A stretch of 64,000 bases of DNA from Gekko japonicus (Eukaryota). Made by a program: the position numbers and the translations under genes. The notes below the pieces were generated by a model. That model was given only the letters and a program-made list of their open reading frames with translations, searched no databases and was not told where the DNA came from. Where the stretch lies: assembly GCF_001447785.1 (NCBI RefSeq), contig NW_015173696.1, forward strand, positions 322,103-386,102, in the 5' to 3' direction. This document shows, one piece after another, positions 7,281 through 59,374 of this stretch; the stretch's first letter is position 1, and each line of letters starts with the position of its first letter.

Positions 7281-7505
7281 TAGGGTTGCCAATCTCCAGG
7301 TGGGACCTGGAGATCTCCCACTGCTACAATTGATCTCCAGATGACAGAGATCAGTTCCCCTAGAGAAAATGACTGCTTTAGGAGGGTAGACCCTATGACA
7401 TTATACCTGCTGAGTCCTTCCGCCCCCCCCCCGCCCAATGCTGCCCTCTACAGAATCCACCCCCCAAACCTCCAGGTATTTCCCTCCTTAGAGCTGGCAA
7501 CCCTA
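7281..7505. mobile_element. ~225-bp Blackjack-like MITE (TAGGGTTGCCA family)
   Basis: TIRs TAGGGTTGCCA / TGGCAACCCTA. Body homologous to 59855-60046 and to the modules at 6928, 8455 and 8732. Confidence 0.8.
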
Positions 7506-7690
7506 CATTCCCCTCAGTGCCTGTTGGGAGTGGGTGGTGGGGGAGGGGAAGGGAGTGGGCGACCGGAGGCTTCTGCCTCCTGTCTCCGGTCCTGGAGTGG
7601 GGGAGGGTGGAAACGGACCCGGCAGCCGGAGGCTTGCACCTCCAGTCGCCGGCCCTGGAGTGAGTGGGGTTGGGTGGGGGGAAACGGACC

Positions 7691-8183
7691 NNNNNNNNNN
7701 NNNNNNNNNNNNNNNNNNNNNNNNNNNNNNNNNNNNNNNNNNNNNNNNNNNNNNNNNNNNNNNNNNNNNNNNNNNNNNNNNNNNNNNNNNNNNNNNNNNN
7801 NNNNNNNNNNNNNNNNNNNNNNNNNNNNNNNNNNNNNNNNNNNNNNNNNNNNNNNNNNNNNNNNNNNNNNNNNNNNNNNNNNNNNNNNNNNNNNNNNNNN
7901 NNNNNNNNNNNNNNNNNNNNNNNNNNNNNNNNNNNNNNNNNNNNNNNNNNNNNNNNNNNNNNNNNNNNNNNNNNNNNNNNNNNNNNNNNNNNNNNNNNNN
8001 NNNNNNNNNNNNNNNNNNNNNNNNNNNNNNNNNNNNNNNNNNNNNNNNNNNNNNNNNNNNNNNNNNNNNNNNNNNNNNNNNNNNNNNNNNNNNNNNNNNN
8101 NNNNNNNNNNNNNNNNNNNNNNNNNNNNNNNNNNNNNNNNNNNNNNNNNNNNNNNNNNNNNNNNNNNNNNNNNNNNNNNNNNN
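7691..8183. other. Assembly gap (N run) inside a GC-rich minisatellite
   Basis: N bases with CpG-rich repeated units on both sides. Confidence 0.99.
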
Positions 8184-9492
8184 GCTGGAGTGGCCGCGGG
8201 GGGGTCTGGAGTCGGGCGGCCGCTGGCGGGGGACGCAGTCGCCCGGGCCGAGATTGGGGGGGCAAGGCGGGCGACAGAAGGCCGATGCCTCCGTCGCCCG
8301 GCCCTCTACAGAATCCACCCCCCAAACCTCCAGGTATTTCCCTCCTTAGAGCTGGCAACCCTACATTCCCCTCAGTGCCTGTTGGTAGGCAACTAAGCTT
8401 GGTCCTGTCACCTACTTTGGCCTTTGGGAGAAAACACATTGGGGCCAATCCTGATAGGGTTGCCAACTCCAGATGGGAAATTCCTGGAGACTTGAGGGAT
8501 GGAGCCTGAAGAGGGTGAGGTTTGAGGAGGGGTGGGACCTCAGACAGGTACACTGCCATAGATTCCACCCTCCAAACCAGTCAGTCCCACATAGGGAACC
8601 ATTGTTGCCAATCTCCAGGTGAGGGCTGGAGAGCACTCAGTATTACAACTGCTCTGCAGAAGGGAGGGCAGAAGTCAGCTGAAGTCAAAGGGGCAGATAA
8701 TGGTAGGTTGATGGCTAGCTGGGAAGGAGATGGGGTTGCCAACTACATGCTGACAAATTCCTGGGGATTTGAGGGGTGGAGCCTGGAGAGGGTGGGATTT
8801 GCAGAGGGGTGGGACCTCAGACAGGTAGAATGCCATAGACTCCATCCTCCAAACCAGCCATTTTGTCCAGGGTAACAATTGTTGCCAATCTCCAGGTGAG
8901 GGCTACAGATTACTTACAATTACAACGGCTCTTCAGGTAGCAGAGATCAGTTCCTCTGGAGAAAACAGTGGACTCTGTCATTATACCCTGCTGAGGTCAC
9001 CACAGCAAATTGACACTGTTTGCCCAAAGCCAGAGCACTGCCCCAGAGCCTCTTTCTAGATCCCGTTGTATTGCTTTCACAACGGCCTTTACTGCTAGTA
9101 AATAAATAATACAATAAATGGTGTCACCCAGAAGTGACATTATCATGTCAGAGATGTCAGGGGCAATGCTCCAGTTTTTGGCTAAAACTCTATGGTAAAA
9201 TTGGCTTCAAACCATAGAGTTTTGTCCACAAACCAGAGTGTTGCCCCACTGATGTCCCCAACGTGATGATGTCACTTCTGGGTGACATCATCATGTCAGG
9301 GCCTGCACTTCTGGTTTTACTGGAATTCACCCAGGAAGATCAACTGGAGGCAGGATTTTCCACTGCTGGCTAGCTGGCTGGTGGCGGGCAAGAGCCCAGC
9401 AAAAGTGGGGGTTCCCCTGCCCCCACTGGGAACCCTACTGAGTGCTTTAATAACCAAAAGCAACTAACACAGATGGATAAAAGAGCAGACAA

Positions 9493-11035: not shown

Positions 11036-12079
11036 ACCTAAAATGAATCTGAAGTCCAAGAAGAAGAAACGTATAAGATAAATGGATATTTCAACCGCAT
11101 ATGTGATTATAAAACACCAGAGACTAGTATTAAGATTAAGGTAATGTTAACCAGAATTTTGATAAATTGATCTCTTTCTTATTATTGTAGGATTCTTATA
11201 TATACATTGTAACATTTAGATCACGATCCTTGTCTTAGCTTTTGTTTTAGATATAGTGTTTACCCCCTGTTCCCTTCCCTTTAGGATGTAGGTGATAAAA
11301 TGCAATATAAAAGTTATTTAAAAATAGCCAATAATGAAGAAAAGTAAAATAGTTCTATTGTAAGGTTCCCCCCCACCAACCCGTCCTGGTCAGCTGAATT
11401 TGACAGACGGGACAGGGACAGCTTCAGGAAAGTGATGCAATAATGTACATGCATAACACATCTGCAATTTAGAACAGTTCTGGGGGTTCAGTTAACAAAC
11501 AAGCATTTTTTCAAGTGATGATGTAGCTTGTAATTGGTGATCATATTACAATTCAAACAGAGCAGTGTTTGCCCATCACTCTTCTTACTGGATAATTTGC
11601 ATGAACAAAATCAGTTCAAGGATACATTAGCATGATGAAAAATACAACAGAGAGTGTGTTGGTTCTGAAGTCAGTGGGCTTAAAAAGCTGTCATTCTTGC
11701 ACAGCAAGTCTAGGTAAGGCTCAGAGCTAGTTCTGAAGACCAGGTAAGGAAATACAGTCAATGAATTTTTCATACAGCGACAGATTGGATAAATATACAA
11801 ACAAATGACTGTACTACAAAACAAGGTACCACAGAAGGTACTACATTTGAGATTCCTTCCATCATCTCTTAATCTCTTACCACATGAGCACTTTTTCCAG
11901 TTCTCTCTTGCTTCTTCTTCCACAAACACAGGCAGTCTGATAGCTTGACAACTATTTATTAACTCTGCCTATCTTGCCATTTGCTTGGGGACAGCGGGCA
12001 AGCTCCCACCCCAGGGCTGGTGGAGTTCTTCACTCCAGCAGGAGCAAAAAGCATGGCCAGGTAGCAATGTCACATGACA

Positions 12080-12649
12080 TCTATATATCTAATAGCGAAA
12101 GGTGCCCCCTGCGTGCGGATACCTAAATTCGCGCATCGGGGGCACCTGGGGGGGAGGGAGATTTTTGTGCACACTTGGGGCATTCCCCAGGTGTGCACAA
12201 AAATCTAAAAACCTGAAAAAAATATTGGGGGGATACTTAAATCCCCCCAAAAGTGACAGAGCGTCCCCTGCACATGTGCAGGGGATGCTCTGCGAACTCC
12301 CTCGCCGCCGCCGCTTGGGGGGGGGGAAGAGAGCAGCGAGGCTCGAGCGGCAAGCCACTCGGCCCTCGCTTCGGAGCTGGGGGGGAAGAGCAGCGCCAGC
12401 GAGGCCCCAGCGGCAAGCAGCGAGGCCCCAGCGGCAAGCCGCTCGGGCCTCGCTTCAGAGCCGGGGGGGAGAAAGAGCAGCTTCGAAGCCGGGGGGGAAG
12501 GGAAGGGGGGAGATCGAGCGGGGGGGTGGAGGAGACGAGGGAGGAACCGGCGCGATGGGGGGAAACTTACCTCCTCCTCCTGCTTCCTCCTCTGCCTCCT
12601 GTGTGGAGGTCCCTCCCCCCCCACGAGTATCGCGGGTCCCGCCCCCTTG
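12080..12649 (+). mobile_element. Non-autonomous Helitron-like element, copy 1 (570 bp)
   Basis: 5' TCTATATATCTAATAG, subterminal hairpin cccacga-gta-tcgcggg (12620-12636), 3' CTTG. Inserted between A and T with no TSD; removing it restores the host repeat motif tgaca|tcacttct. Confidence 0.85.
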
Positions 12650-14017
12650 TCACTTCTAATTTGTACCCAGAAGTGACATCATGACACTCTAAGAATTTGC
12701 CCATCACTGTGGTTGGAGATGTACCAATTCCTAGATGATTGCAATGTTTCTTCAGGGTACAAACTGGCAGAGATGCTGTGACATTGCACCCCAGCTCCCG
12801 AACACACTGCTGGATCCAAACACTATAAAGTACAAGTACCTGAATTTTATGTCTGGATTATTTATCATTTCAATTTCTTATTTATTCTGTGTGGCATATC
12901 ACACAGTCTCCTTTTAATTCCCTATTTTAGAAATGTTTTACTGGAGGTCAATTGGATTTTCAATCTTGTGAAAGGTTACGAACTAATTTTCTTTTGTGAA
13001 TTTATTTGTGATCTCTTTGTGAATAATTTATTCAATAGATGAGAGAAGGCTTCATGAATGAATTATTCACAACATATTATTGGGTTATCTATAATGTTGG
13101 CTTGAGATTTTTTTAAAAAAATTACATAATAATTTATTTTCCCCAAATTATTACTACAATTAATCCATGCAGCTCTGGAGAAGTGTTTTATTTATTTCAT
13201 CCATAGTACATTAGTTATTTAACATAGGGTTTTGGGTTTGGGGTTTTTTTTGGAAATGTTGCAGGGTCAAATTATCTGCTTGATGTTCATGTTAGACAAA
13301 ATGTTTTGGCTTTACTTTTATATGTAAATAAATATTACATTTAGTTTGTGGCTGCACATGTATAATTATCTACAGATTTATGGAATGATGACATTGGGTG
13401 ATACTCCCTGCAATATTATGTCTGTGAGGCATCAGAATGCACATTATATGAAGCAAGAAAGAATTATCTTCACCAGTGTTTTGAAATAGAAGCAATTGAT
13501 GAATCCTGGTTGTAGAATGTAGATGAGTTGAGCAACCAGGTGTTATTTTCCTAATGGTTGCCAGTCACATCTTTTCTCTACTTCAAGGAGTCTCAAAACC
13601 TGATTTAAATAATAATAAAAAAGATCTACAGGTGTTCCTAGTCTGTACAACATAGATATATATTCTAGTCCCTAATTCTGCTTTCTGTAAAGCAAATATG
13701 ACATAAATTTAATATCAAAAAGTAAATGTCTAACATAATGTCCCCAAATATTCATTGTAATATTAGTTCTATGAGTGGTACACAGGGAGTCCGACTGTTA
13801 CAGAGTCCGTCATCAAAGGGGAAACATGTTTCTGTAGAATTTCCTGAGATAAATTCATTTTCCAGAGCTGCTACTAGCTATGGAAGTGTGTGTGTGTGGG
13901 GAAGACCTGTACTGCACCTATCTTTCCCTCCTGTATGCTAATAGCATTGCCGGGGGGGGGGGGTTCTACATGAAAAATAGGTTTGGGAGGAAGGGTTAAA
14001 TTCTCTCTCCCAAAAGC

Positions 14018-18019: not shown

Positions 18020-18902
18020 ATGGAATTACATGTCATAGTTGTATATGTAGGGGTGGTTTGTTAGATTAGCATGCAAAATAGTGAAAATATTTTTAAAAAC
18101 AGATCAAAAGAATGACACACTCGGTTTCTGGTTATCATCTGTTTCAGTTCAACTGGGGGGACAGGTAATAAATGTGTTAGAACTGGAGATTGATGTGTCC
18201 TAATTTGTGAGAATCCAGTCCTTAGACCCCCATCCATCTTCTTTCTAGCATGGAGGAGAACTTTACAGCATCTTGGCTGTGCAGAGTATTTTCCGTGCCC
18301 CCCAAAAAAGAGAACTACATTTAAATCTACCATTCCAAATTACATTACATATTCAATTACATTCTTAATTGTTAAGAGCAGTAGTAACATTCTGTTTCAC
18401 TAAAACATGGAGTTAACTGGCAGAATCCTTTTCCTGGGGTACAGTGTTATGTGAGAGATCAACAAGATATTGCATTGCATTACAATCACTATTATAATAT
18501 ACTATTTCCAAAAAGAAAAAAGAAAGAAAGAAAAGAAAAATATCAAAATATAGGGGATGTATAACCCTACTTGGTGAGAATACATATGTGAAGATTGAAT
18601 GACTTAGCATATATAATGAGATAAGAAACCAATATCCCTGTTTAGTCCTGCCGGGGTATTTGTTCTGAGTGTTGTAATAACTTGTAATTCAGCTATGTCC
18701 CTTTCCATTCTGTTCCTGAAGTTCCTTTGCAATAAAACAGCTACTTTGAGGTCAGCCACTGAATGCCATGGAAGGTTGAAGTGTCCCCCTACAGGTTTCT
18801 CAGTCTTGTGATTCCTGATGTCAGATTTGTGTTTATTTATCCTTTGGCATAGGGTTTGTCCTGTTTGTCCTGTGTAGAGAGCCAAAAGGCAATGGTGGCA
18901 TT

Positions 18903-19899
18903 TTGAGAAACCTGTATAAGGGTCAAGAAGTGACAGTTAGAACCGGATATAGAACAACTGATTGGTTTCGCATAGGAAAAGGAGTACGACAAGGATGTAT
19001 ATTTTCACCTTGCTTATTTAATATATATGCAGAGTACATCATGCGAAATGCTGGCCTGGATGAATCACAAGCGGGAATTAAGATTGCTGGGGAAAAGATC
19101 AACAACCTCAGATATGCAGATGATACCACTCTAATGGCTGAAAGTGAAAAGGATCTAAAGAGCCTCTTGCTCAGAGTAAAAGAGGAAAGCGCAAAAGTGG
19201 GCTTGAAGCTCAACATCAAAAAAACTAAGATCATGGCATCCGGCCCCATCACTCCTTGGCAAATAGAAGGGGAAGTCGTGGAAGTAGTGACAGACTTCAC
19301 GTTCCTGGGATCCCAGATCACCACAGACTGTGACTGCAGCCATGAAATTAAAAGACGCCTGCTCCTTGGGAGGAAAGCAATGGCGAACCTAAACAGCATG
19401 ATAAAAAGTAGAGACATCACCCTGCCAACAAAAATACGCATGGTCCAAGCAATGGTATTCCCAGTAGTCATGTATGGCTGTGAGAGTTGGACTATAAGGA
19501 AGGCCGAGCGCCGAAGAATAGATTCTTTTGAACTATGGTGCTGGAGAAGACGTGCTGGAGTCCCTTGGACTGCAAGAAGAACAAATCAGTCAATCCTAAA
19601 AGAAATCAACCCTGATTGTTCCCTGGAAGGCCAGATAATGAAACTGAAGCTCAAATACTTTGGCCACCAAATGAGAAGGGAGCACTCACTGGAGAAGACC
19701 CTGATGCTGGGAAAGATTGAAGGTCAAAGAAGACAGGGATGGCAAAGGATGAGATGGTTAGACAGTGTCATAGATGCAATGAACATGAAATTGAGCGAAC
19801 TTCAGAGGACGGCAGAAGACAGGAAGGCCTGGCATGATCTGGTCCATGGGGTCGCAAAGAGTCGGACTCGACTGTGCGACTGAACAACAATAACAACAA
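18903..19899 (+). mobile_element. RTE-BovB LINE, 5'-truncated, RT C-terminal ORF open
   Basis: 326-aa stop-free ORF: GVRQGCIFSPCLFN...NNLRYADDTTLMAESE...MYGCESWT...LKYFGH...LEKTLMLGKIEG. 3' end ggggtcgcaaagagtcggactcgac + (caa)n. Confidence 0.95.
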
Positions 19900-24013: not shown

Positions 24014-24146
24014 NNNNNNNNNNNNNNNNNNNNNNNNNNNNNNNNNNNNNNNNNNNNNNNNNNNNNNNNNNNNNNNNNNNNNNNNNNNNNNNNNNNNNNN
24101 NNNNNNNNNNNNNNNNNNNNNNNNNNNNNNNNNNNNNNNNNNNNNN
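24014..24146. other. Assembly gap
   Basis: N run. Confidence 0.99.
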
Positions 24147-25740: not shown

Positions 25741-27417
25741 TGTATCTGGCACTACTGAAAAACACACAAACTATGGCTGTGGTCAGACGTGCCTTTAAAT
25801 CTGACTCATCTGTGAATGCCTGATGGATTTAAAGGGCTTAATAAGACAGCAACATCTGGGAAAGGTCCTGAAGCCATCAACACCCCCTGCTGCCCTGCCA
25901 CGGAAGCGGAGTCAAAAGACACTGGGAAAAGTCTGGTCCTAATGTTTGCCAATGGGCTATGGACGGACTTTCCCCTGTCTGATCACTCAAGCATGCTCTC
26001 ATGCTGTCGGGATGGTCTGCTCATTCCATCCTGATGGTGCCTCCCACCCACCCCGCTTAGCAGTATGTGCATAACTGCATACTCCATGGGGAACCCTCAG
26101 TGCGGAGGTGTGATTCCTCATTTATGTGCATGGGAAACAAAAGGAAACAAATCCACTCACCCAAACATGCCGTCTGATTGGGCAGTGATGGGCTGAGCCC
26201 ACAGCTGCAAAGGATGTGTGATTGTGTAACACCATGTCAATTTCCACCATGGGAAATAGGCTTAGTTTAGAGAATTCTTATATCACTGAATGAAATTTAT
26301 TGTCATTAAAGGGGTATTGATATTATGTATGCGAAGTGCAAACATTCAGTCAAATAAAGCTATATAAGATGTTGTTACAATCCATGGTCACCTCAGAATA
26401 TTGGACCTAAACACTTGTGTACCTGGGAATTAAAATCCAGTTCAATTAAAATTAATAAATTAAGTAACTTCTAAGCATCTCAGATTTACTTAAGCATTTG
26501 CTGTTACAAGAAGTTACTTAATTTATTATAGCCCCCCCCCCAAAAAAAAACCCTCGGATTTGGGGACTCGTGTCAAAATGGCAGGTTGAAATAGAAGGGC
26601 TGTTGGCTAGCACATACTTTAATGGCTTCTTCTAAGATTTCTGTTTGTGCCCACTTGTGGTAAATTTTGCAGATATAATCTGGTTGAACTAGATTTTACA
26701 GTTGGAACACAGTTAATTTACATGCATTTTAATTAATCTGATAAATAACTTGTATTGTCTAAGTCATATCATTGTGCTGCACTCATTCCAGGGCCTTCAG
26801 TCTCTCTATATAACATAGACTTTCCAGCAATTCCTAGAGTGAAGTGATGTCACTTCTTGTTTTTTTCCCAGAAGAGAAGTCATGATGTGCAACACTGCCA
26901 CCCCTATAACCCTGTCCTCCATCTACCTTCAGGCACCTTCATCTCCCTTCAGGCACCTTCAGGTAGGCCATTATGTAATGAGCTGGGGCTTGATAGGGCT
27001 GGGAAACTCTATCAGGTCCCAGCTCATGACATAATGCCCATAACATTATCAAGCTGCCCACTGAGTTTCATGGGCTGGCATGATGGTGTGGCAAGCCTAC
27101 CATTTGGTGTATTCTTGGTGGGGAGGGTGGGGTATAAATTGAATGAATGAATGAATGAATAAATACATTCTTATGGCTCCTTGCCCTACACACCTGTTGG
27201 CTACACACCTGTTGCTGGCTCACTGGCTTTGGGAAGGCGCTCAGAGCTGGACCAAGATTTTACTGTGTTCGAGGCAAACTATGACTTTGACCTCCAGTAG
27301 AGAGAAAAGTGACTAGTCTAGAATTAATGTTAGCTTTGATTTACTTGAGATTTGAAATGAACATAGTAAAAATAAAAGATACTTTACTTTTTTAAAAAAT
27401 AGTCATTAATCCCTAAC

Positions 27418-28040: not shown

Positions 28041-29259
28041 GTAGGAATCTGGGCAAGGGAAGGCAAACCTCCCCTGCGCTACCTCACTGCTTCATGCACT
28101 GTACTGTTTGAACTGTTCTCGTGGGAATATGGGAGGCAGGGTCTCTTGGATGAGGACACAATCCCTGAGATTTCAATTCCAGACAACAGATAAGAATGTA
28201 TTTGCTATAAACCAATGGGAATAGTCAATTAATTCATCTAGATGCCATAATGTTTATTTATTTATTTAAATAATTTGATTTACTAGGCCGCCCTTCCCTA
28301 CAGGTAAGCTTAGGATGGCTTACAACAGTATTATACATTCGCATACAACTACATTAAAAATAGTCAGATAAATAACAATAAATAAGAACAGTATATGTAC
28401 AATACTTAAGATGGTGGAGAATCCTAACTCCCCGGCCTCCCTGGGGGGAGGGTCTATGAGGAATGGGGAACCACATGAGAGTGCCAGAAGAAATCCCATC
28501 ACTGTCCTCAGCCAAAAGCAAATCCAAACAAATATGAATGAATAAAATAATCCAAACATAATAAAATTTCTGTGCACATTTGTATTGTTATATCTTTGAT
28601 TAGGGGTAGCTTTGACAATTGGAGGACAGTTCAGCGCATTTCATGCAAGTGCCCTACATAGATCTGCTTTGCTTATCTCAGTGGGCTGATGGATGTAGGA
28701 TTTATCTTATGGCCCTTTATGACCTAGTTTGAGAGAATACGCTGATATTATCTCTTGGATAGAGATACCCAAGTACAAACTAAATGTCTGTTGTACAGTG
28801 GCTGAAAATGGCGTATCATCAATATACTTAACTCTCAACATGGCCAAATCCAAGAATACTTAAATCTGGAGACCAGTGCCATGACGAGACAAGACAAATC
28901 TTTCTTCAAGTCTGAGAAAAGCCCTAGAGCTGAAGAAAAATCTGAAGTTTTCAAACATACACGCACACAAACAAACACTGAGGGGTTAAAACCCCCAAAT
29001 AATAGAAGCAAGGCTGGTAGATTTAAGAAACAAATGCCTCTATGGCTATTGTTAGGCAACCACAATAGTAATCCAAGACCTTAGGCCTTAGTTTCTGTCT
29101 GTAAAAGGCAGGGGCCTCCAGAGTTGTTTTGGCCTTTGAGGGAAAACTTAATGGGGCAAGGCCAAGCAGCAACCGTGGGGTGACTTGCTACAATGTGACT
29201 TGCATGACTCACCCACGCTAGACTGTTTGCTACTGTTCAAAAACATTCATCCCACAGAA

Positions 29260-29523: not shown

Positions 29524-29558
29524 NNNNNNNNNNNNNNNNNNNNNNNNNNNNNNNNNNN
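29524..29558. other. Assembly gap
   Basis: N run. Confidence 0.99.
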
Positions 29559-30092
29559 GGAAAGAGGAAATAGTGTGGGGAAGAGTATAGATGGGAAAAT
29601 AAGGTGCCCTCTGCAAGTCCTTGCAGGTTCCCTACAATGCAACTGGGATTAGCCCAGTGACTGGCAGTGCACAATTCAGTCATAGTTTTCCTAGGCAGAG
29701 GCTGTCAGGGGACAGAAGGAGGGAAATCTGAAGACAGGGGAGCAAATAAAGGTAGGGTGGCTGGGGGTGGGAAGGAGAGAAGGAAGCAGAAAAAGGGCAG
29801 AGGCTATGGGGGCTTTCAGAGAAGGAAAAGATGAAATATGGTGGGGGAATGAGATGCCACCACAAGGTCCTCTGTCAATATATCTAATTCTCAACAAAGT
29901 CCCATCTGTGGACACTTAAATCCAAAGAACAGAGGCATGAACAAATACGACAGAACTTGCTACAAACCTGGGAAAAGCTCAAGGTTTGCAGAAAAATCTG
30001 AACACCTTGAAGCAAATTCAGTATTCAACTTGAAGCCAGTGCAGCTGGTGAAGCACAGGTCAAAAGTGTGCAGTCATTGTGGTACTCATAAG

Positions 30093-31474: not shown

Positions 31475-32014
31475 TCTATATATCTAATAGTAAACTTGCC
31501 CCCGGAGTGCGGATCACTAAATCAGCGCTCCGGGGGCAGCTGGAGGGCCGGGGGAGGTTTGTGCACACGTGGGCCAGTCCCCACGTGTGCACAAAAATAA
31601 AAAAAGTTAAAAAAAAATTCGGGGGGATGTTTAAATCCCCCCAAAAGTGCAAGAGCGTCTCCTGCACGTGTGCAGGAGACGCTCTGCGAACGCTGCCGCC
31701 TCCTCCTCCTCCTCCTCGGAGCCGGCAGGCAGGCAGGCTGGCCGGGTGGGGAGGGAGGGAGGGCAGGGAAGACAGGCCTCGCTGCCGCCGCTGCCTCCTC
31801 CCCGGAGCCGGCAGGCAGGCAGGCAGGGAGGGCGGGAGGGCGAAGACAGGCCTCGCTGCCGCCTCCTCCTCCTCCCTGGAGCCGGCAGGCAGGCAGGCAG
31901 GGTGGGCGGGGGGGACACCGGCCTCGCCACCACCACCGCCGCGGGGAGATCAAGGGGGGGATGGAGGAGACGGAGCTCTTCTCCCCCCCACGAGTATCGC
32001 AGGTCCCCCTCTTG
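31475..32014 (+). mobile_element. Non-autonomous Helitron-like element, copy 2 (540 bp)
   Basis: Identical 16-nt 5' end TCTATATATCTAATAG, hairpin remnant cccacgagtatcgcagg, 3' CTTG, site ttgcA|Tttatc with no TSD. Confidence 0.85.
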
Positions 32015-35251: not shown

Positions 35252-36019
35252 CATCACTTCTGTCCTTCAAAAAATCTCCTGGAAGATCAGAGGAATGGTA
35301 TACCTCCCATCTTCTTGTGTAGAGCCACTATCATGAGTAGAGCCACTAGAGTCTGTGCAGCTGCTAGAATTTACCATTGTTTAATGTTGATTTAACACAA
35401 TTCATCTGCTATTTGTATACGCAATGGCTTTCTGTAACTATTTTTGCTAATGTATGTTTTATACTGCTGCTATATGGCTGTAATAAATAATTGCTTGAAT
35501 GACTGAGCCAATCACACACACTTAGCCTACCCTATAGAGTTATTGTGAAGATAACATATGGGATATATACTCAGCCCCTGGGTTCTTTGAAGGAAGAGCA
35601 GGATAAAATGAAATAGATTCCCAAACAAAATTCCAGCTCCTCCAAATCTGTCTGCTTCAATTTTCAGCTTTATTATAGCACTAGGAATAAGGCCCCATGT
35701 GGGAAAGAAATACAATGAGTTCTAGAAGGAAGCTCCAGGTGAGTGTCTCGGCTGTGGCTGGTGGGGTGGCAGAGGGAATCGGAAAATAGAAGGAGGCAAG
35801 CCATGTTTATTTCCTTCTGCTTAGCTATAAGGCAGGGCTGTCTTGAGTCATTTTGCTGCCCCAAGTGGGTAGTATGGGAGGACAGTCTCGTGGTGACAGG
35901 TATGGTTCCCTCCACTCCTGACTTATGTTGCTTTGGGGTTATTCAGTGACAGCTAAGGTAGAAAAGCACCTCTGGGAGAGGGAACTGGAGACTACTCAGA
36001 AGAAGTTGAAAGGTGAAAC

Positions 36020-36182
36020 GCTTCAGTCCCGGTTCCTAAACGGGACTGAAGCTTTTGTGTGTGAAATGGCAGTTACATTCCAGTAGGGAACCGATTCTCA
36101 AACGGGTTCTGTCTGAAATGACAGACCAGAATCCGTTTGAGAACCGGTTCCCTACCGGGAGATATCACCTGTCTGAAATTCC
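36020..36182. repeat. Two adjacent inverted repeats (rearranged MITE fragment)
   Basis: gcttcagtcccg / cgggactgaagc (36020-36052) and a 27/29-bp arm pair (36083-36155). Confidence 0.75.
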
Positions 36183-39330: not shown

Positions 39331-39799
39331 GGTGGGTTTTGAAAGCCCTATGCAAGAAAATGGAAACACAGGAAGGAAGGCAAAGGAGAGGGGGAAAACC
39401 CTCTTGAAACTGACATGACTAGTTTGAAACTGACCAGAGTATTTCCAAGGCTGGAGAATCCCCCCTCCTGTTGTTTTGAAGTATGGTAAACATTTTGATT
39501 GAACAGAGACAGTCTGTCTGGAAAGGTACCTATTCACCAGCCAGCACAAACCTCCACAAACAGCTTGAAAGTTCATGGCAGGTTAATTGGCACAAACTTT
39601 GTGCCCGTTAACCTGTAATGAACTTTGCTTCATGAAACACTTAACTTCATGAAACAGACAAAATTAGTCAAGAACTTTAGTTCATGAGCTGGTTTGTGCC
39701 CATCCATAAATATGGATAGCATTTAGGAAGCCTGGAGAAGGGAAAATATCTATTAACCACTCATTGGGAGCATCACTATTTCTCACCAATGCACTATAG

Positions 39800-46628: not shown

Positions 46629-47480
46629 ATGGGTGTGCAAGAAAAAAATGTCATTTTTGGGGGGGGTTACAGTATAACAGACCCAAAAAAAATTGGTAAA
46701 TACCGAATTTCCCCAGTCCAATAGTGGTAAAGTATCGGGACTGGGGAAATGATCAGTATTTCCAAATATATTTGGATCTATTATACCAGCGGGGAGGGGA
46801 GGGAGGCATGTTAAAATGCCTTCCTGCCCTTGCCAAGCCCTGACAGTCAGCTGTTTGGTTTAGGCCTTTTAAACCTAACAGCTGACAGGTGGAAGGGAGT
46901 GAAACTGACCAGTGGAAGCCTCCTCCCCTCTGCCTTCCCTTCCACAACTGCCCCCCCCACGCCCGAGGCAGGGCAGCTGTGGAAGGGAAGGCAGAGAGCC
47001 AAGGCATGTTTAAATGCCTTTTTTCTCTCTCCCCAACCTGGTTCGGCGGGGGAAAGAATGTAATTTAAACATGCCTTGGCTCTCCCTGCCTTCCTTCCTT
47101 GAGTCCTCTGCAGCAATGGCCAGGCTCGTGGAGGGAAGGGAAGGCATGCTTACATGGCAGGGCAGTTAGAGAAGTGAAGGGAATGTATATAAGCAGGCCT
47201 TGGTTCTCTGCCTTCCCTTGTCCAGCTGCCCTGCAACAGTAGGGCAGTTGGAGAAGGGAAGGCAGAGAACATAGGCAGGTTTAAATGCCTTTCTTAATCT
47301 CTCCAAGCCTGCACTGTCTCTGCCTTCCCTCCCCGAGTCCCCCCACAGCAGTGGCGAGGGGAGGGGAGGGGAGGCACTCCTCCCATGTAAACCAATCAGC
47401 CCAGGGCTCAGGAGTGGGAGGAGTGGAAAGAAGCACTGAAATGTCTCCCAGGGAGGCATTTAAACCCAACAGCTGACTGG
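46629..47480. mobile_element. Non-autonomous DNA-transposon fragment with repeated internal palindromes
   Basis: Start resembles TAGGGGTGTGCA; recurring hairpins ctctgccttcccttccacaactgcc / ggcagctgtggaagggaaggcagag. No right end found. Confidence 0.5.
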
Positions 47481-47667
47481 TGCTTCATTTTTTTGCTTCA
47501 GTCTGTCAGTTCACAGACTTAGACTAGAGTAATTCTTTATAAGATTGCACTGTCTGACAGAGCTTTCCCTCCCCAGACTCTTTTTGACCTGTCAAGGCAG
47601 TCATATGCTTATTTACTTGGAAATAAACTGAATCCAGTAGGTTTTGTTTTCAAGTAAGCAAGCTTAG

Positions 47668-49200
47668 GGAGCTCAAGTGGTTAAGATGCTGAACTGAAGG
47701 CTGTGGAAGGCCGGTAGTTCAGCAGTTCGAGACCCAAGCAGTTCGAGACAGAGAGTGAGTATAAATGGGCAGTTCTCTCAGTGGAGGGGGGTAAGCAGTG
47801 GGGTACCGCAGGGATCAGTACTTGGTCCACTGCTTTTTAACTTGTTCATTAATGATTTGGAGTTGGGAGTAAGCAGTGAAGTGGCTAAATTTGCGGATGA
47901 TACGAAGTTGTTCAGGGTGGTGAAAACCAGTGAGGATTGTGAGGCACTCCAAAGGGATCTGTCAAAGATGGGCAAGTGGGCGTCAACATGGCAAATGGGG
48001 TTCAATGTGGCCAAGTGCAAGGTGATGCACATTGGAGCCAAAAATCCTAAATATAAATACACATTGATGGGGTCTGAACTGGCAGAGACAGATCAAGAGA
48101 GAGATCTTGGAGTTGTAGTAGATAACTCACTGAAAATGTCAAGACAGTGTGTGACTGCAATAAAGAAGGCCAATGCTATGCTGGGGATTATTAGGAAGGG
48201 TATTGTAAACAGATCAGCCAATATCATAATGCCGCTATATAAATCAATGGTGCGACCTCATCTGGAATACTGTGTGCAATTCTGGTCACCACACCTTAAA
48301 AAGGATATTATAGCTTTGGAAAAAGTGCAGAAAAGAGCAACTCGAATGATAAAAGGGTTGGAACACTTTCCCTATGAGGAAAGGTTAAAGCGCTTAGGGC
48401 TCTTTAGCTTGGAGAAAAGACGACTGAGGGGTGACATGATCGAGGTTTATAAGATTATGCATGGGAAAGAGCAGGTAGAGAAAGAGGTACTTTTCTCCCT
48501 TTCTCACAATACAAGAACCCGTGGGCACTCCATGAAATTGCTGAGCGGTCGGGTTAGAACGGATAAAAGGAAGTACTTCTTCACCCAAAGAGTGATTAAC
48601 ACTTGGAATTCACTGCCACAGGAAGTGGTGGCAGCTACAAGCATGGACGGCTTCAAAAGGGAATTAGATAAGCATATGGAGCAGAGGTCCATCAGTGGCT
48701 ATTAGCCACAAGGTATAGATAGGGACTCTGGGGCAAGTGATGCTCTGTCATCTTGGTGCTTGGGGGGGGGTCAACAGTGGGAGGGCTTCTAATGTCCTGG
48801 CCCCACTGGTGGACCTCCTGATGGCACTGGTATTTCTGGCCACTGTGTGACACAGAGTGTTGGACTGGATGGGCCTTTGGCCTGATCCAACATTGGCATC
48901 TCTTATGTTCTTATGTTCTTATGTTCAAGTTGCCGCATGACGGAGTGAGCTCCCGTCTCTATTTCCAGCTCCTGCCAACCTAGCAGTTCGAAAGCAAGAA
49001 ATTGCAAGTAGATGAATAGGTACCACTTCAGTGGGAAGGTAACAGCATTCTGTGCGCCTTGGTGTTTAGTTATGCCGGCCACATGACCACGGAAATGTCT
49101 TCGGACAGCGTTGGCTCTTTGGCTTTTAAACGGAGATGAACACCGCAACCCTAGAGGCGGATTTGACTGGGTTTCGAGTAAGGGAACCTTTACCTTTTAA
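47668..49200 (+). mobile_element. Sauria SINE split by a CR1 insertion
   Basis: The two halves (47668-~47749, 48926-49200) join into a near copy of 50637-50987. (ACCTTT)n tail, TSD aagcaagcttag (47656-47667 / 49201-49212). Confidence 0.9.
47750..48925 (+). mobile_element. Young CR1 LINE, 5'-truncated; RT ORF 47755-48705 stop-free
   Basis: SGVPQGSVLGPLLFNLFINDL...KFADDTKL...LEYCVQFWSP...RLRGDMIEVYKI...TRGH; octamer tail (TCTTATGT)3. Confidence 0.95.
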
Positions 49201-50636: not shown

Positions 50637-50987
50637 GGAGCTGCGGTGGCTCAAGTGGTTAAGACGCTGAACTGCAGGCTGTGGAAGGTCGGTAGTTCAG
50701 CAGTTCGAGACCCGAGTTGCCGCATGACGGAGTGAGCTCCCGTCTCTAGTTCCAGCTCCTGCCAACCTAGTAGTTCGAAAGCAAGAAATTGCAAGTAGAT
50801 AAATAGGGACCACTTTGGTGGGAAGGTAACAGCATTCCGTGCGCCTTGGTGTTTAGTTATGCCGGCCACATGACCACGGAAACGTCTTCGGACAGCGCTG
50901 GCTCTTCGGCTTGGAAACGGAGATGAGCACCGCAACCCTAGAGTCGGACTCGCCTGGCTTTCGAGCAAGGGAACCTTTACCTTTACC
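50637..50987 (+). mobile_element. Sauria SINE, full length
   Basis: tRNA head ggtggctcaagtggtt...gttcgagaccc, (ACCTTT)n tail, perfect 14-bp TSD taattgatattgca (50623-50636 / 50988-51001). Confidence 0.92.
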
Positions 50988-51295: not shown

Positions 51296-53722
51296 ATTGG
51301 AGCCCTTGGAGCAGTGCCTAGAAGTCTTAAGAAACACCTGGACATTCTAGGCATTTAGCAAATAACACCAGCTCAGCTCCAGAAGACAGTGTTGCTTAGA
51401 ACAGCATGAATCCTGCAAAGATAAACCTGAAATTCCCAAAAACTTGGCCAGATCCCGAATTGCAGAATATCCAGCTGTGACAATTAACGATGATGATGAT
51501 AATAATAATTTTGTTTTATATTAATATCATTAAAATCACAAAAAGTACAATTGTAAAAATGGTTGTACCTGATACAGTTTAATTTTGCATTTTTAAATAG
51601 TAAGTTAAATATTCACTTATGCATTAGTTAATTGTGTATGTAGATTTCATGACTAAAATAAACATTGTGTTGTTATTATTCTTATTGTTTACATATTTAC
51701 CCTTTCACCAGAATAACTACTATGAAAGTGTAGGGGAGGTGCAACTGTATGTTCTTCTCTCAAAAGAAAATTATCTAGTTACAGCTCTGTTGCCCCAAGA
51801 AGACCTTTCTTTTTCTCCTGTTCAGCAAAATTAACTTTTCTTGAATTACCATGTGGAAGCCTCTGTACCTGCTTTGCCATGCAGTCTTATTTCTTCAGTT
51901 GCCATGGTAAATAGGGGTGCTTTCTCCAATGTGTCAGAAATTGCCTATGAGGGTTGGGTTCCCTTGGGGAGTGTACAACATATAAGAGTTTCATTCCACT
52001 TGGAATTAAAAAAAAAACAAGCAGAAAACAGTTTCCAAATGAAAATGATAGAGAGACTTCCGGTCTGTGGCTCGACGATGGTAGTCGCACTCCCCTACCT
52101 CAATCAATAAAGCTACCCTGTCTTCAGGGGATTAAAAAAAAGAAAGAAAGAAAATGATAGAGAGAAAACATTTAATTGAATAATCCAAATGGATAGCTTT
52201 AATAATATAAGAAAACAAATTTATTTTAAAAGGAAAAAAAAGAAACTAAAGGGAAAATAAATGGGAAGGGGGGGTGACATCCCCACCATGAATCATCTTG
52301 GTGCATTGTTAGAACAGCTGGGAAACAGAAGCGATAGCACGGGTTGGTCAGTAGCTGGTAGGCTTTACTGCTTTGCCTAGAAGGATTGTAGGACAATGTT
52401 CTGAAATTTTAATTTAATTTACTTTTTTAAGTTTCACAGTATTGGCTCCATGGCCAGACAAAGGATGGGCAGGAGGCAAGCGGCGAGCCCCTTTTCCCCT
52501 GTGACAGCCCAGCCCCAGCCACATTAGATCCCAGTGGTTGGTCCATTTGAGGGAAGAAGAAAATCCAATTTTCCTGCTGCTTGCACCCTGCCCCCCCCAG
52601 CATCCGGCCATCTCTCCTCCCCTGATGGTGCCGCAAAAGTTGGGCCATGGCTAAGTCGGGCCCTCCCCACTTTTCAACTTCAAAAGTACAAACCTTCCTA
52701 CACAAACTGAATATTGTCCACACAAACTAAAATCTGTAAAATACCTTAAGTTTAGATCAGAGATTAATTTGCATATGTTTTGATTGGCATGAAGAACACT
52801 TGGCTCAGTGATAACTGGGTGTAGGGGGGAATTAAATAATTACAACGGACATGTGGACTGGCTAGTACTGCCGGCCTACCTACTATGCGGAGAACAAGCT
52901 AGAGCTTATGTGCCTCTACTGCTTTTCCCATCTGCAAAGCCTCCAGCTGCCTATCAAAGGCAGGGCAAGCCATAGTGTCCCCCTCCCCACACTGCTTTGC
53001 TTTCTTTTCAGAAACAGACAAAAAAAAAAACCCACATACTTCAGCATACAAAACCTATAGCTGTATATAGCCAAAAATAAAGTGTTCCCAAACCCAGTGA
53101 GATAGTGTAATGGTTAGTAGAAAGTGAAAATATTCTGAACAGGATTTTTTAAAAATAAAAATATCTATCCTTATATTATATTCACCAAATTAAAACTGAA
53201 ATAATTGTTGTGAGTTTTCTTTTGACTGAGCCCTAAAAACCCACTTAATTTATAATGTTCATCTTTCTATGTAGCAATGCCTCATTTTAAGCTTTTAGTC
53301 TGAGGTATCACGCTGTAAGTATTCTTGTGCATAGGGCTCTCCCAGATGTTTAAGGAATGTAGTCATTCGCCTTTTAAAAAACACACTAATTGTTGCTTTG
53401 TTTAAGGAGGATGGTTAAAAGTTAAGTGGTTTGGAGGATGTAACTGAGAGGCCATGTTAAATTAGGGCTAGCCAGGGAATGTGCTCAGACCATAACTCAT
53501 GTCTACATTTCTAATCACTGACCCTCAACTTCCTTGAGGACATGCCCCATAAATTATGACTATGTGAGACATTAAAATGTTGCATAATTTTGTCCTGTTT
53601 GTTTAAAATGAAAATTGATTACATTTTCTTTTGACCGTCTTGAATCTTATATATCTATTCAGATCTCTCCCTGTGTAACAAAGTTTAAGTCCAGTGGCAC
53701 CTTTAAATCCAACAAAGTTTTA

Positions 53723-53772
53723 TTCAAGGTATGAGCTTTTGTGTGCACGCATACTTCCTCAGATACATTGAA
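53723..53772 (-). ncRNA. Degenerate minimal hammerhead ribozyme in Penelope terminal repeat
   Basis: Minus strand ttcaatgtat-CTGAGGA-a-gtatgcgtgcacac-AAAA-GC-TC-ataccttgaa. Stem I is 9/10 bp; the core G12 position is A. Confidence 0.65.
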
Positions 53773-54123
53773 ATGGATACATACATATAGGTAGAGGGTG
53801 AGCAGCAAATAAGCATACAACATAATGAAAATGTTTTAACAGATGCAAGGACCAAACAGGAATAGCAAGCTAAGTTTATATGGTCACCATTTGTTTGGAT
53901 TTAATTCGGGGGGCACCCAGTGAAATAAATAAATATGTCAAAATTGGAGACTAATGTATAAATGTATTCTTCTCAATTGTGGAATGCTAAGAGTAAATAA
54001 CTGAGACCTTGTTGTTATGCTCCCTCCATCTCCTCTCAAGCATGGAGGTAACTAACAGCATCCTTTTCTTTGAAGTGGGATGTTTGGTTATGCAGTGTTA
54101 TGTCTCCTCTGTCACCAAACCAG

Positions 54124-54412
54124 AGAATCATAGAATCACAGAACTGGAAGGGGCCATACAGGCCATCTAGTCCAAAGCCCTGCCCAATGCAGGATCAGCC
54201 TAGAGCATCCCTGACAAGTGTTTGTCCAGCCGTTGCTTAAAGACTGCCAGTGAGGAGGAACTCACCACCTCCCTAGGCAGCTGATTCCACTGTTGCACAA
54301 CTGTTACTGTAAAAACGTTTTTCCTGATATCCAGCCAGTACCTTTCCACCCTCAATTTAAACCCATTATTGCGAGTCCTCTCCTCTGCTGCCAACAAGAA
54401 CAGCTCCCTGCC
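54124..54412 (-). mobile_element. CR1 3' fragment nested in Penelope
   Basis: (agaatcat)n tail; minus ORF RTRNNGFKL...DIRKNVFTV.VVQQWNQLPREVV.S.SL.VFKQRLDKHL. Confidence 0.9.
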
Positions 54413-54650
54413 CAGTTATTTACACTTAGCATTCCACCTGGGTTAGATTTCATCCCCATTTGGTCCCTGCATCTGTTAAAACATCTTCATTATGTTGTAT
54501 GCTTATTTGCTGCTCACCCTCTACCTTTCCTTTTGAATAAAGTTTGTTGGTCAAAGGTGCCACTGGACTCAAACTTTGTTCAACTGCCTCAGACCAACAC
54601 GGCTACCCACCTGGTTCTCCCTGTGTGTTAATCAACGTACAGTTGCTTCT

Positions 54651-56801
54651 TCTTCTTTTTTTAATATTATATTTATTTGGTTTTATAAGCCTATATCGTA
54701 CACATATGCAAAATCATCAGCAAGATTACATACATAAAAAATCCTTAGACAGCACTTATCCTTTCTAGCAACACAGAATAGCATATCCAACATACCTACA
54801 ATAAATAGTTTTATCCTTATTCTCAATCTTAATATCAAATCTGTATTGAATGAAAACTTATGTTTCTTTATCCTTTAAGGTTTATGTACTGTCTTCTCAG
54901 AACTACACTAAAGGTTCATATCTGTATTGTAAATCATTCATATTTGCTTGTTACATTTCTCCTTTTCTTCACCTTGTACAGTTCTGGCTCTTATCCCATC
55001 TCCTATGTCTTACCATTTCTATGCTTTCGATATAGGGGCTTAGCTTAATATTTAGTTTTTATATCTTTTTTCTTTTATTGCCCTTTTTACTTTTAATTCA
55101 ATCTTTATAGCTTTTATGTTTTATTAACATTCTATTGGAACCTTTATCTCTACTTTCACTCTCATAATTGCTCTATTATTTTCTTTTAAATATAAATTTT
55201 CCATTAAATTCCCTCAGTATCTTTCAATTATAAACTGCCAGGCCTTCACCCATCCTTATTTGGTCTAAAGTTAACCTAAATATACCATACTCATTCTACA
55301 CTGTTATCAAAAGTAAATTTGAACCTACTTATAACACAACCAAACCTTCTAACCAAAGTCAAAATTAATTTTCAACCACAATATTCCAATACGATCATTT
55401 ATCCAATAGCCCTAATATTTCCTTCACCTTTTATCTTTAAAACCTAATATTTCCATCACCTTTTATCTTTTATCTTTAAAATACACCTCCTAATCACCAC
55501 TAGTTTACAACAAAAATACAAATTTAAATACATAAATAAGTAGGTTTTAGGTCAATTTTCCATCTAATCTTTTATCTGAAAAAAATCAATCTTTCTATCT
55601 TTTCATATGGCTTATTTTTCCTCTTGAACATTTGCAGTCTACTTTTCTGTCTCAGCATTGACTTTTTTCAGATAAAAGAAATGGTAAATTAATAGTCCTG
55701 CTGTCTCAGCATGTCTACATGTCTACGTTCTTTAAACATTCCTTGACTTCCATGCCTCTCCTCTCTGATTTTCAGCCATTCTAGTCTCCAGGATCTATTG
55801 TCTCCTTTAAATTTCCACGCCCATCATTTCCTTCTTTTGGTCCTTTTATCACTCTCTCGTTCAGGCTTTAAGCATTGTCTGTTTTCTTTTGGCAGTCCCA
55901 ATTTAGTACCAGGCAATTTTTAAAAAAGTTATTTCCTACCATTTCCATTGGCAAACCTTTAGGTTCTACATAGTCATTCATTTGTATACTCCCCAAATTA
56001 TCCTTCCTTAACATAGTCCCTGTTCTTTGTTTGACCCTCTTCTGGAGCCTCCTTCACAGAAAATTGTTCCTCCTTTTCCTCTATTTCTACTTGTATGTTA
56101 TACTTCTTCCTTAATTCTGCACACACTTCTTCACATCCTTTTTGCACCACCTCTTTCACAACTCTAAGGAACTGCTCAATAGTCATCTCCCCAACTTCCA
56201 TGTTTTCGTCAAGTTCCTCCTCTTTTCTCACTATGCACTCCATTTCAGACAAGCTCTTTCAGGTTCCAACCACAAAATTATCTTATTGTCCTACAGTCTC
56301 TTTACCAAGCCATTATCCTCATTTTAGCTCCTTGCCAGAACCAGAACCATGCGAAAACACCAACATTCATCCTTCTCTTCCCCCACCGGAATATCAACCT
56401 GCAATTAAGTCCTGTATATTTCCCGGCCGCTCTACTTCACATATTTGGACACATTTGTTTGGGGGTTTTTTTCACCTTTCCACTTCTTCTCTTCTTCTGT
56501 GTTGCTGCAGTTACACATCCACGTAAATTTAAAAACAAGTCCGGATGGTCGCATCTAATCAGAACATGGCAGCCATATTCTTTCCCCACAATCGCTCCGC
56601 ATCAGGGCGGTCCTGGTCACCCCCCCGCTTGCCGATTATGGGAGGGGCCAGAGAACAGATCCCCCTGCTCCAGCCCTCTCTCAGGGAGGGCTGGTCGAGC
56701 TCTCCCGGCGTTCGGGAGGCTTAAAGGAAAGTGAAAGTCGGACAGGCGGCTCGGAGCGAGCCGAGCACCTGCCCGTCGTCATGCCGTACCAGAAGGAAGT
56801 C
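54651..56801 (-). mobile_element. 2.15-kb non-autonomous retroposon with L1-like ends
   Basis: Perfect 18-bp TSD caacgtacagttgcttct (54633-54650 / 56802-56819). Minus-strand 5' GACTTCC start, CpG-rich ~250-nt head, purine-rich body, AATAAA + A-rich tail. No RT motifs. Confidence 0.8.
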
Positions 56802-57017
56802 CAACGTACAGTTGCTTCTATGCATTTGCTTGGAACAAACTTTCAAGAGTGCAGAAAGTTTAAAAAAAGATAACATGCTAACAAGCTCATTACTTTTTAA
56901 TTACCATTCAAATTTAGGAATGAGATAAATAGGACTTGATTCAAACCCTAACAGATGGACCTCTCGCCATCAGCCTCCATCCTTCAGCTATCAATCTCTG
57001 CTCTTTCCTATCCAAAG

Positions 57018-57210
57018 TGTACTTCTCAAATAAAGATAAGTATTTCTCTTCTAAACTTGCAATGTGGCTCTGTGTAGCTTTGTACTTCTCAAATAAAGAT
57101 AAGTATTTCTCTTCTAAACTTGCAATGTGGCTCTGTGTAGCTTTGTACTTCTCAAATAAAGATAAGTATTTCTCTTCTAAACTTGCAATGTGGCTCTGTG
57201 TAGCTTTGTA
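57018..57210. repeat. Perfect 63-bp tandem triplication
   Basis: Units start at 57018, 57081 and 57144; tgta microhomology at the ends. Confidence 0.95.
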
Positions 57211-59374
57211 AGCTGAGTAACCTGGTAAAGTGATGCTCCTGTGTTTGTAGCTTTAAGCACTCTGCTAAGTAATGGTGACTGGATTAACCAAACCAGTTAA
57301 CCTCAATAGACCCTGGTATGAACTAGATTTCTGTGTCTTCTATTATTGATTATGTAAATGGATTGTTTTGTAATGAATGAAAGAAATTCCCTAAAATAAC
57401 AAAACAAAACCAAGATTTTCTTTCATTTAGTTCTGGTTACATTTGTTAGTACAGCCTTTGTCTCTATTGGTTTCACTTTTACAAGGCAGTCAGAGTTTTC
57501 CAATAAATGGCATAAAGAGAGCACAGTGTTCCTAAGGGGGAATGGGGAGGACATGGTGTGGAACTTTGCTTTCCTCTCTCTTCCCAGTGCCTACCCTGCT
57601 GTGCCAAATTTTCCCTTGCACTCTGCACTTCCCTGCTTGCCTGCTGCTCTCCAAACCGTATCCCTCTTCCAAGCAAACCTACCTCAAGGTCCTCCTGCTG
57701 CCTACTAGCCTGCCCAGATGCCTTGCCCTTCATGTGCCACCAAATACCTTTGTCTTGTCACTCTGCCTCTTTTTCATACTACTGTTGCCGTTTTTTAAAG
57801 TTAAGTGGATGCAGTACTGTCTGTACTACTGTTTGAAAACTTTCCTATCAATTCTCCTTTAGACTCCAATATGTCTGTCTAAAATTTGGTAAAATTTGGT
57901 AATATGGGAACTACTACAACCCCCCTGCATTTTGTCCAATTTAGATGAAAGTCCCAAGTCCCAAGTAAAAAGGGGATCTTCCACTGAAATGATGGGAAAT
58001 AAGACCAAATAGAATTACCAAAACAAAACAAAAATGAAATATACAGTAATGAACACATCCATATAAAACAACCTAATAACAAAACATTTACTTTTGGATT
58101 TAATAACAAAAATGAAAGATACTCTTTTCAACTCTTTTCAAAAGTTTAATGGACAACTTCAGCATGCAGTCTTGATTTTACCCAATAGAAAGAATATGCT
58201 GCCTACCTTGATACAGCAATAGCAGCAGTAAATAGGCCCCAATATATCTTGCTACAATTATAGAATTATTGGTTTGGTTGATCCAGTCTCCAGCACAGTT
58301 TATTCTGCTTTTTGTTAAGCAGATTTTTGAACCAATCGGTTGCTACTCAGTGATGTGCATCCAAGTAATTCACTTAATTTTGAATTCTAGCAATTTCAGA
58401 AGAGGAGACTCTTTCTTCCACTATAATATCTGCCAGTGTTGCTGTGGGATTAATTTAATATTGGTAAAGAACTTGATATACCAGTAAGAGAGTGCAATAA
58501 AGGAACACATTATTATTTCTAGAAATTAAATTAGCTACACCATTTTGCATGGAAGAGCTGGGTCCTGCATTCTGTCTATAAGCAAGGAGTGGTTGTGAAA
58601 CTCAGGAAGGAGGTGGTTCAAAGGTGGCCTTTCCAATCCTGGAGCTTTCTGACCCTCAAATGGCAAAAAAGAGCCAGGAACCTTCTGAGACCAGACTCAC
58701 ATGAGCTTTCAGCCCACTTGTGTTTTGGTCCTTGTCAGAAATAGCATCAGAAAAATCTTTTCTCCAAAGACTTTTACTGTCCCCTGGACCTCACTTTAGA
58801 TGTACCGATTGACATCACTGGAAAACTAGGACCAGAAAAATCATACTTGCTTGGTAGATGGTTAAATGAAAATTATACTAAAGTTTTTTAAACTTGGTAT
58901 AAATGATAGGAAAAGCTTTCAATAATACATTAGCTGCTTAGCCACAGTACAGCATGCATATTTTGAAGCATGCATTTTATTACATTTTTTACAAGGATAT
59001 ACTATACAGGTACAAAATTTCAGTGATTATATAAAATCACATATAAATATACCCCCAAAAGTAAAAGAAAATCAAGAGAAGGAAACTGGAAACCAGGGGA
59101 AAAAAGAAAAGCTGTCTGGGTAAGAAACAAGTAAGAAAAATAGGAGAATATGCATTGGCTCATATTAAATCTACAATTTTATGTTTGGCAAAAACATGTC
59201 TATAAACCAGCAGGGTCTCCATGTTTGTGATAAAAGAAAACTAGACCAAAATTGAGCCCATAAGGAAATATTTTCCAGAAGGCTAATCTTATGGTTAGTA
59301 GCTAACTATATATGATTTTATAAGCAGAACCCCCAACCAGTAGGTAGTGCCATTCCATTTCCATACTATTCAAT

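Follow-up and report, generated by a model that had tools for sequence, protein, structure and literature searches.

Four hairpins fill the 5' end of two Helitron-like elements in Gekko japonicus and may form an extended left-end module

The closest described systems are the canonical Helitrons (HLE1), exemplified by bat HelibatN/Helraiser and anole Helitron-2N (PMC4778049, PMC11417382, PMC3014272), with which the two Gekko japonicus elements analyzed here share a TC at the 5' end, insertion at A|T without target duplication, noncoding sequence, and, less clearly, a short 3' palindrome. Their length is near that of the 550-bp Helitron-2N4_AC of anole. Compared by description, the elements depart from the canonical type in ending with CTTG instead of CTRR (PMC4067079, PMC11417382), and they combine a weak 3' hairpin with four strong 5' hairpins that the accessible portions of these papers do not mention for HLE1 families. 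Lepidopteran Hel-2 (PMC4344730) is also a non-autonomous element of TC/CTRR type; it has an internal repeat that varies and, at the 5' side, a predicted inverted repeat that is conserved. Hel-2, however, is described with one 5' inverted repeat, subterminal inverted repeats, and a CTGT microsatellite, whereas each gecko element has four hairpins, all local, and its 25 longest inverted repeats include none that joins the 5' and 3' subterminal regions. The HLE2 group (DINE-1/HINE/Helentron, Helitron2, and proto-Helentron; PMC4067079, PMC11417382) shares rolling-circle movement, palindromes or stem-loops on the 5' side, and central repeats, but its members carry subterminal inverted repeats and insert between T and T, while the elements here start with TC, insert between A and T, and show none of these repeats.

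Given the 5' inverted repeats of lepidopteran TC/CTAG Helitrons (PMC4344730) and the 5' palindromes and stem-loops of DINE-1, Helitron2, and proto-Helentron (PMC4067079, PMC11417382), the original prediction overstated its case in placing structured modules this far inside the 5' end outside the standard Helitron description. An array of four hairpins reaching to ~215 nt inside the element was nonetheless not met in the accessible text of the literature on Helitron ends, and the portions of PMC5714489, PMC6544945, PMC13286980, and PMC3014272 that were available mention no 5' hairpin array in an element. No published report of a covarying multi-hairpin Helitron 5' module was found in the mostly open-access literature covered, and repeat databases may already name this family.

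Both elements lie on the plus strand of the window, the 64,000-nt stretch of DNA analyzed here. Copy 1 (12080..12649) is a non-autonomous Helitron-like element of 570 nt, delimited by its termini and homologous to copy 2 (31475..32014, 540 nt), which sits 19.4 kb downstream. In both copies, the TC start (12080 and 31475) is preceded by A and the CTTG end (12646..12649 in copy 1) is followed by a host T. Homology begins 2 nt before the TC, within a common CA flank. Its 5' portion is a block of 218 columns with 39 differences (82% identity), and its 3' portion covers ~35 nt. The 5'-terminal 16 nt (12080..12095) align without a difference and presumably hold the nick site and left-end signal. Between the conserved ends, the interiors consist of GC-rich repeat units unlike each other. 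In copy 1, the variable interior (12298..12600) has units spaced 84 nt apart and small extra hairpins at 12419-12454 and can be aligned only loosely with copy 2, whose differing minisatellite has units of 74 to 86 nt. The presumed terminator, an imperfect 17-nt subterminal hairpin 13 nt from the 3' end of copy 1 (12620..12636), is weak (6 of 7 pairs, -3.0 kcal/mol), and its counterpart in copy 2 (31987..32003) has 5 of 7 pairs at -1.1 kcal/mol. In canonical Helitrons, the corresponding palindrome is 16 to 20 nt long and lies about 11 nt from the end.

Insertion between A and T was seen in two of two copies with no target duplication, as read from the flanks and not from an empty orthologous site. 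For copy 1, this agrees with the palindromic host repeat that the element splits (12074..12687): the joined flanks restore a GACA/TCACTTC arm that is intact at 6483 and 26851, both on the minus strand. Short palindromic host repeats of this kind form a family in the window (9264-9293, 6483 on the minus strand, 26845-26857, and the 12074-12687 member that received copy 1), of which 9264-9293 is a perfect hairpin with 12-bp arms.

Because both 3' ends read CTTG, the elements fall outside HLE1 as strictly defined by CTRR. CTTG|T ends have, however, been reported both in maize Helitrons and in products of Helraiser hairpin deletion (PMC4778049), so CTTG lowers strict HLE1 membership but not the likeness in working features. 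Neither terminal inverted repeats joining the ends nor the subterminal inverted repeats of HLE2 (Helentron/DINE-1/Helitron2) were found among the 25 longest of the 44 and 50 inverted pairs in the respective copies or among blastn self-hits. Membership in HLE2 was rejected for want of these short repeats and on the A|T insertion of both copies, which is not T|T. The window has 141 ORFs of at least 85 aa, of which 137 were scanned and gave no Rep/helicase match, the other four being excluded for overlap with an N gap; ORFs overlapping either copy gave no Pfam match (six were scanned in copy 1). A structured RNA or tRNA-derived SINE was rejected on the basis of zero Rfam hits at the gathering threshold and zero tRNA genes in the window. 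The Helitron identity assumed in the original prediction thus stands on structure, with TC after A, an end before T, no target duplication, and a weak 3' hairpin, albeit with CTTG and not CTRR. That the elements belong to two diverged subfamilies of non-autonomous Helitrons of the canonical type (HLE1) is one part of a joint reading, completed by the left-end module discussed below, to which we give slightly less than even weight.

No third copy was found in the window by blastn or with an nhmmer profile built from the two copies, which returned both copies and their self-inverted hits only. Weak hits at 29956-30019, 53709-53751, 46649-46669, and 28931-28999 were inspected as further copies and dismissed. 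A scan of GTDB with a 19-nt stretch common to both copies gave two loci, both isolated chance matches of 19 to 22 nt, and a distant blastn search of copy 1 against plasmids and phages gave no match.

The window reads as vertebrate noncoding DNA: it is CpG depleted (observed/expected, 0.23) and contains assembly gaps, many dispersed repeats, and two reverse-transcriptase fragments. The first fragment is a plus-strand ORF at 18607-19880 (E = 2.5e-17) that overlaps a weak minus-strand GIY-YIG match (E = 7e-4, below the curated cut-off), a combination that may be a Penelope-like arrangement. The second, at 47698-48702 (E = 6e-14), starts within a short repeat that recurs at 50639-50716. N runs occupy 7691-8183, 24014-24146, and 29524-29558, and the first is flanked by an 88-nt duplicate of 99% identity (7443-7530 and 8301-8388) that is possibly an assembly artefact. 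Three identical tandem units of 63 nt lie at 57018-57210, within a 4-kb region (54001-58000) where GC skew and AT skew are both strongly negative, the reverse of the trend across most of the window. Isolated long hairpins with 19- to 30-bp arms occur outside the studied repeats at 26969-27036, 36016-36056, and 39568-39626.

Four strong hairpins, all given on the plus strand, fill nt 21 to 213 of the 5' end in both copies. H0 (12100..12147; -16.0 kcal/mol) begins 20 nt from the 5' end of the element and has 21 pairs, 16 of them Watson-Crick, and a 6-nt loop ending in TAA and closed by GGAT/AT; its counterpart in copy 2 (31497..31538) folds at -19.7 kcal/mol, and the lower stem is re-registered by 2 nt in copy 1. 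H1 (12159..12206; -23.7 kcal/mol) has 22 pairs, all Watson-Crick except a T.G at 12175/12190, and its base is 5 bp longer than that of copy 2, where 16 perfect pairs span 31558..31595 (-20.0 kcal/mol). H2 is a stem of 10 perfect pairs in copy 1 (12225..12250; -10.1 kcal/mol) and 8 perfect pairs in copy 2 (31621..31642; -8.4 kcal/mol). H3 is a near-perfect palindrome in copy 1 (12257..12292; -17.8 kcal/mol) and a stem of 16 perfect pairs in copy 2 (31652..31685; -19.1 kcal/mol). The original prediction had named three successive hairpins in both copies, which are H1 to H3, and these were confirmed; the true number is four, H0 having been overlooked. The four-hairpin left end is real, its extent having been under-described and its covariation over-read.

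The 5' blocks folded as DNA at -70.4 kcal/mol (copy 1) and -69.5 kcal/mol (copy 2) against shuffle means near -29, corresponding to z scores of -12.9 and -12.3, and none of 200 shuffles of either block was as stable. In a sliding scan with frames of 220 nt, the top two of 580 frames in stability overlap the two 5' blocks, while the interiors of the elements show no excess stability over shuffled versions (z = -0.6 and 0.0). The two elements, ~1.1 kb in all, contain 8 of the 30 strong hairpins in the window. Folding of the complementary strand yielded -65.9 and -65.7 kcal/mol, so the preference for the plus strand is weak. Wobble pairs were rejected as evidence of strand bias (six G.T versus two A.C, P = 0.14).

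H0 and H2 carry one apex, GGAT-N3-TAA-AT, on unrelated lower stems 114 nt apart in both copies, and one further occurrence of the pattern lies elsewhere in the window. Across the four instances of the motif, the N3 loop bases differ between copies at 4 of 6 positions and the TAA at 0 of 6. Origin of H2+H3 by tandem duplication of H0+H1 was rejected, since the apex alone aligns and the scores are marginal (31 and 118 of 1,000 shuffles as high). A fixed TAA on differing stems recalls the 3' hairpin of Helraiser, in which the loop mattered and the stem was exchangeable (PMC4778049). Hairpins near the ends of IS200/IS605 and REP elements, whose loops are read on single-stranded DNA by an HUH enzyme (PMC8266576), offer a functional analogy for H0, but they are bacterial, number one per end, operate with guide-sequence cleavage, and show no sequence relationship.

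Retention of pairing was assessed against six neutral nulls in which the observed number of substitutions was placed randomly on either copy or split over two descendants of a maximally paired hybrid; the set included a maximally paired ancestor and sixfold CpG weighting. At 82% identity, 0 of 500 simulations reached the observed stability in each of the six. With core hits fixed at 11, a smaller effect remained (13 to 18 of 700 simulations by energy; P = 0.011 to 0.012 by broken pairs). Core stems differ at 11 of 116 sites compared with 28 of 86 elsewhere (P = 5e-5), a comparison that is partly circular. Over all 70 pairs, stem and nonstem divergence (22/140 versus 17/78) did not differ significantly (P = 0.27, or 0.056 once the first 16 nt were set aside), and the spacers of the block consist of A- and G-runs that may be hypermutable.

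The original prediction held that both arms had changed together in hairpins 1 and 3. Counted over all 70 pairs of the four stems in the two copies (n = 2), 53 pairs are unchanged, 12 have changed on one side, and 5 have changed on both. These five comprise one true swap, in H3, two exchanges between Watson-Crick and T.G (at the base of H0 and in H1), and two pairs present in one copy only. The both-arm change in H3 is real and is the sole true compensatory pair, C-G at 12266/12283 versus T-A at 31660/31677, but the second difference in this hairpin (12286) is one-sided and of CpG type. The arms of H1 do both differ (12175/12190 versus 31569/31584); this was rejected as evidence of covariation because the copy 1 pair is a T.G wobble, not Watson-Crick, and the copy 2 bases lie in CpG. 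H2 shows no both-arm change. The H1 change involves bases that are part of CpG in copy 2, and a 10-mer in H3 related to that of H1 is likewise altered at CpG in copy 1, so shared CpG mutability is a confounder of covariation here.

A single true Watson-Crick swap in 70 pairs is at chance level: simulated neutral divergence gives 0.31 to 1.08 (P for at least one, 0.27 to 0.67), and 57 of 500 shuffles reached or exceeded the observed covariation score of a pair-count tool. The three pairing-compatible double changes have P values of 0.008 to 0.16, depending on the null. Double-hit pairs of any outcome are in modest excess, both over all stems (5 of 70 pairs, where 1.67 would be expected; P about 0.009) and in the core (3 of 58; P about 0.004). 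This excess is real but post hoc, because the stems were defined from these same two sequences. Both-arm changes are therefore weak evidence, too few to prove that the hairpins are kept for function. That pairing is maintained, as the original prediction stated, is supported by the energy-retention simulations but not by covariation.

The two copies differ in the block by 14 transitions and 24 transversions, with 4 CpG transitions, compared with 238:200 in the other 15 repeat-pair alignments (P = 0.043), and neighboring differences are more frequent than expected (12 adjacent pairs against 7.3, P = 0.03). This transversion-rich, clustered spectrum suggests that the differences arose between mobile lineages, perhaps with some templated changes, and together with the unlike interior minisatellites it points to subfamily divergence rather than post-insertion decay. 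It is also in keeping with a rival reading in which the hairpins are functionless riders beside an essential 5' terminus that arose and are re-perfected by template switching between arms during replication, perhaps with a boost on a displaced strand. According to PMC8794818, template switching is able to build stems, to preserve them, and to produce changes that look compensatory. The five paired bases gained at the foot of H1 in copy 1 and the register shift of H0 fit such a process, as do the 22 of 30 strong window hairpins that lie outside both elements.

An unclassified fold-back repeat in the same window served as an internal control. It spans ~46660-47500, is built of four paralogous hairpin units, carries nested inverted repeats, and is strongly structured (46790-47409; z = -8.0 to -9.0). 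Two true, compensatory swaps in 16 pairs were counted in three of the six comparisons between units and none in the other three, arguably a stronger case of covariation than the Helitron hairpins. Its hairpin at 47006 has the loop and closing pairs of H2 of copy 2 (a GTTTAA-loop apex), and no Helitron termini were seen on the repeat by eye. Neither arm covariation nor the loop apex is therefore specific to Helitrons, and covarying palindromes outside Helitrons are expected if template switching repairs stems generally (PMC8794818). A low-complexity look-alike of the right arm of H1, the A-run, and the left arm of H2 lies at the edge of the repeat (46633-46670) and is not significant.

Neutral upkeep of this kind would leave the apex common to H0 and H2 unexplained. 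Neutral conversion alone would also be expected to give equal divergence in stems and spacers and mostly double changes, whereas divergence of the core stems is about one third of that elsewhere, with one swap in 58 pairs. We consider it rather unlikely as the whole explanation. Selection and arm-to-arm conversion do not separate with two copies, but the data lean towards selection because of the lower divergence of the core stems and the single true swap.

Selection could, however, act on sequence and not on folding. The palindromes would then be symmetric or spaced binding sites on double-stranded DNA (GGAT-N6-AT and a CACGTGTGCA-type 10-mer) within a promoter or a platform for host factors. 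In copy 2, H1 and H3 each contain the 10-mer, presumably an E-box, and the stems are kept mainly by identity (53 of 70 pairs unchanged), not by swaps. The 5' blocks retain relatively more CpG (observed/expected, 0.56 and 0.82) than the window as a whole, Helraiser requires a double-stranded donor (PMC5876387), and promoters are present in Helitrons (PMC4778049). Binding sites, though, need no uninterrupted arms of 16 to 22 bp, the 10-mer is altered at CpG in copy 1 at all three instances while the fold survives, and duplication of the module is no better supported than the marginal scores given above. We regard duplex binding as unlikely.

The hairpins might instead be inert relics that read-through and capture have stacked, either former 3' terminators or end pieces of other small repeats. 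Helitrons do capture DNA and gain new ends (PMC4778049, PMC3014272), a CTAA overlaps the foot of H1 in copy 1 (12205-12208), and the low-complexity look-alike at 46633 resembles the H1-H2 spacer. This CTAA is missing from copy 2, however, and by eye the other hairpins lack a CTRR about 10 nt downstream. Inert remnants should decay like the spacers, and no stand-alone copy of any single hairpin was found in the window by blastn or nhmmer, where the best outside hit (E = 0.007) was not a copy on inspection. An origin as relics is accordingly very doubtful.

Our preferred reading, which we hold tentatively and at a little below even confidence, is that the first ~215 nt form an extended left-end cis module of four hairpins that is under selection and partly repaired by template switching. 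Its observed basis includes the conservation of the 5' block while the interior was replaced, and on this reading the hairpins are kept because they help the element to move. By analogy with Helraiser, from which nicking, displacement, and strand choice are taken (PMC4778049, PMC5876387), a Rep/helicase encoded elsewhere would nick at the 5' TC and displace the plus strand, whose first 215 nt would fold. The folded module, with its stems and the TAA-ended loops of H0 and H2, may then aid recognition or synthesis of the second strand, as the place where the transposase, or a host replication factor, docks or pauses. Copies retaining the module would be mobilised more often, imposing purifying selection in the moving lineage, and the few both-arm changes, themselves no proof of selection, would be occasional template-switch repairs between arms that are tolerated since pairing survives. 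The left end of Helraiser is essential (PMC4778049), its plus strand is the displaced strand (PMC5876387), and bacterial HUH transposases read hairpin loops (PMC8266576). Against a module of 215 nt, the cleavage determinants of Helraiser are described as lying within the terminal 40 nt (PMC4778049); there are also only two copies to compare, and no autonomous partner appeared among the scanned window ORFs.

Rolling-circle plasmids have single-strand origins, in which imperfect palindromes follow one another over ~200 nt of the displaced strand and act as bacterial priming signals. The four-hairpin block resembles them in layout, with no homology claimed and any priming role putative. As a Helitron counterpart of such an origin, the block would fold on the plus strand and its TAA-loop apex would recruit priming or transposase machinery for the second strand of the circle; we think this improbable. 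How the Helraiser circle becomes double-stranded was left open in PMC5876387, as far as its accessible text goes.

Helitron left ends are essential, yet they are usually defined by TC and about 30 nt of family sequence. If the hairpins are neutral, they are a warning that both-arm changes in transposon palindromes may reflect template switching and not function. If they are selected, the folded 215-nt module and its repeated loop would be a concrete candidate, amenable to mutation, for a role in recognizing the left end or in priming the second strand, and the module would be a better annotation signature than TC alone.
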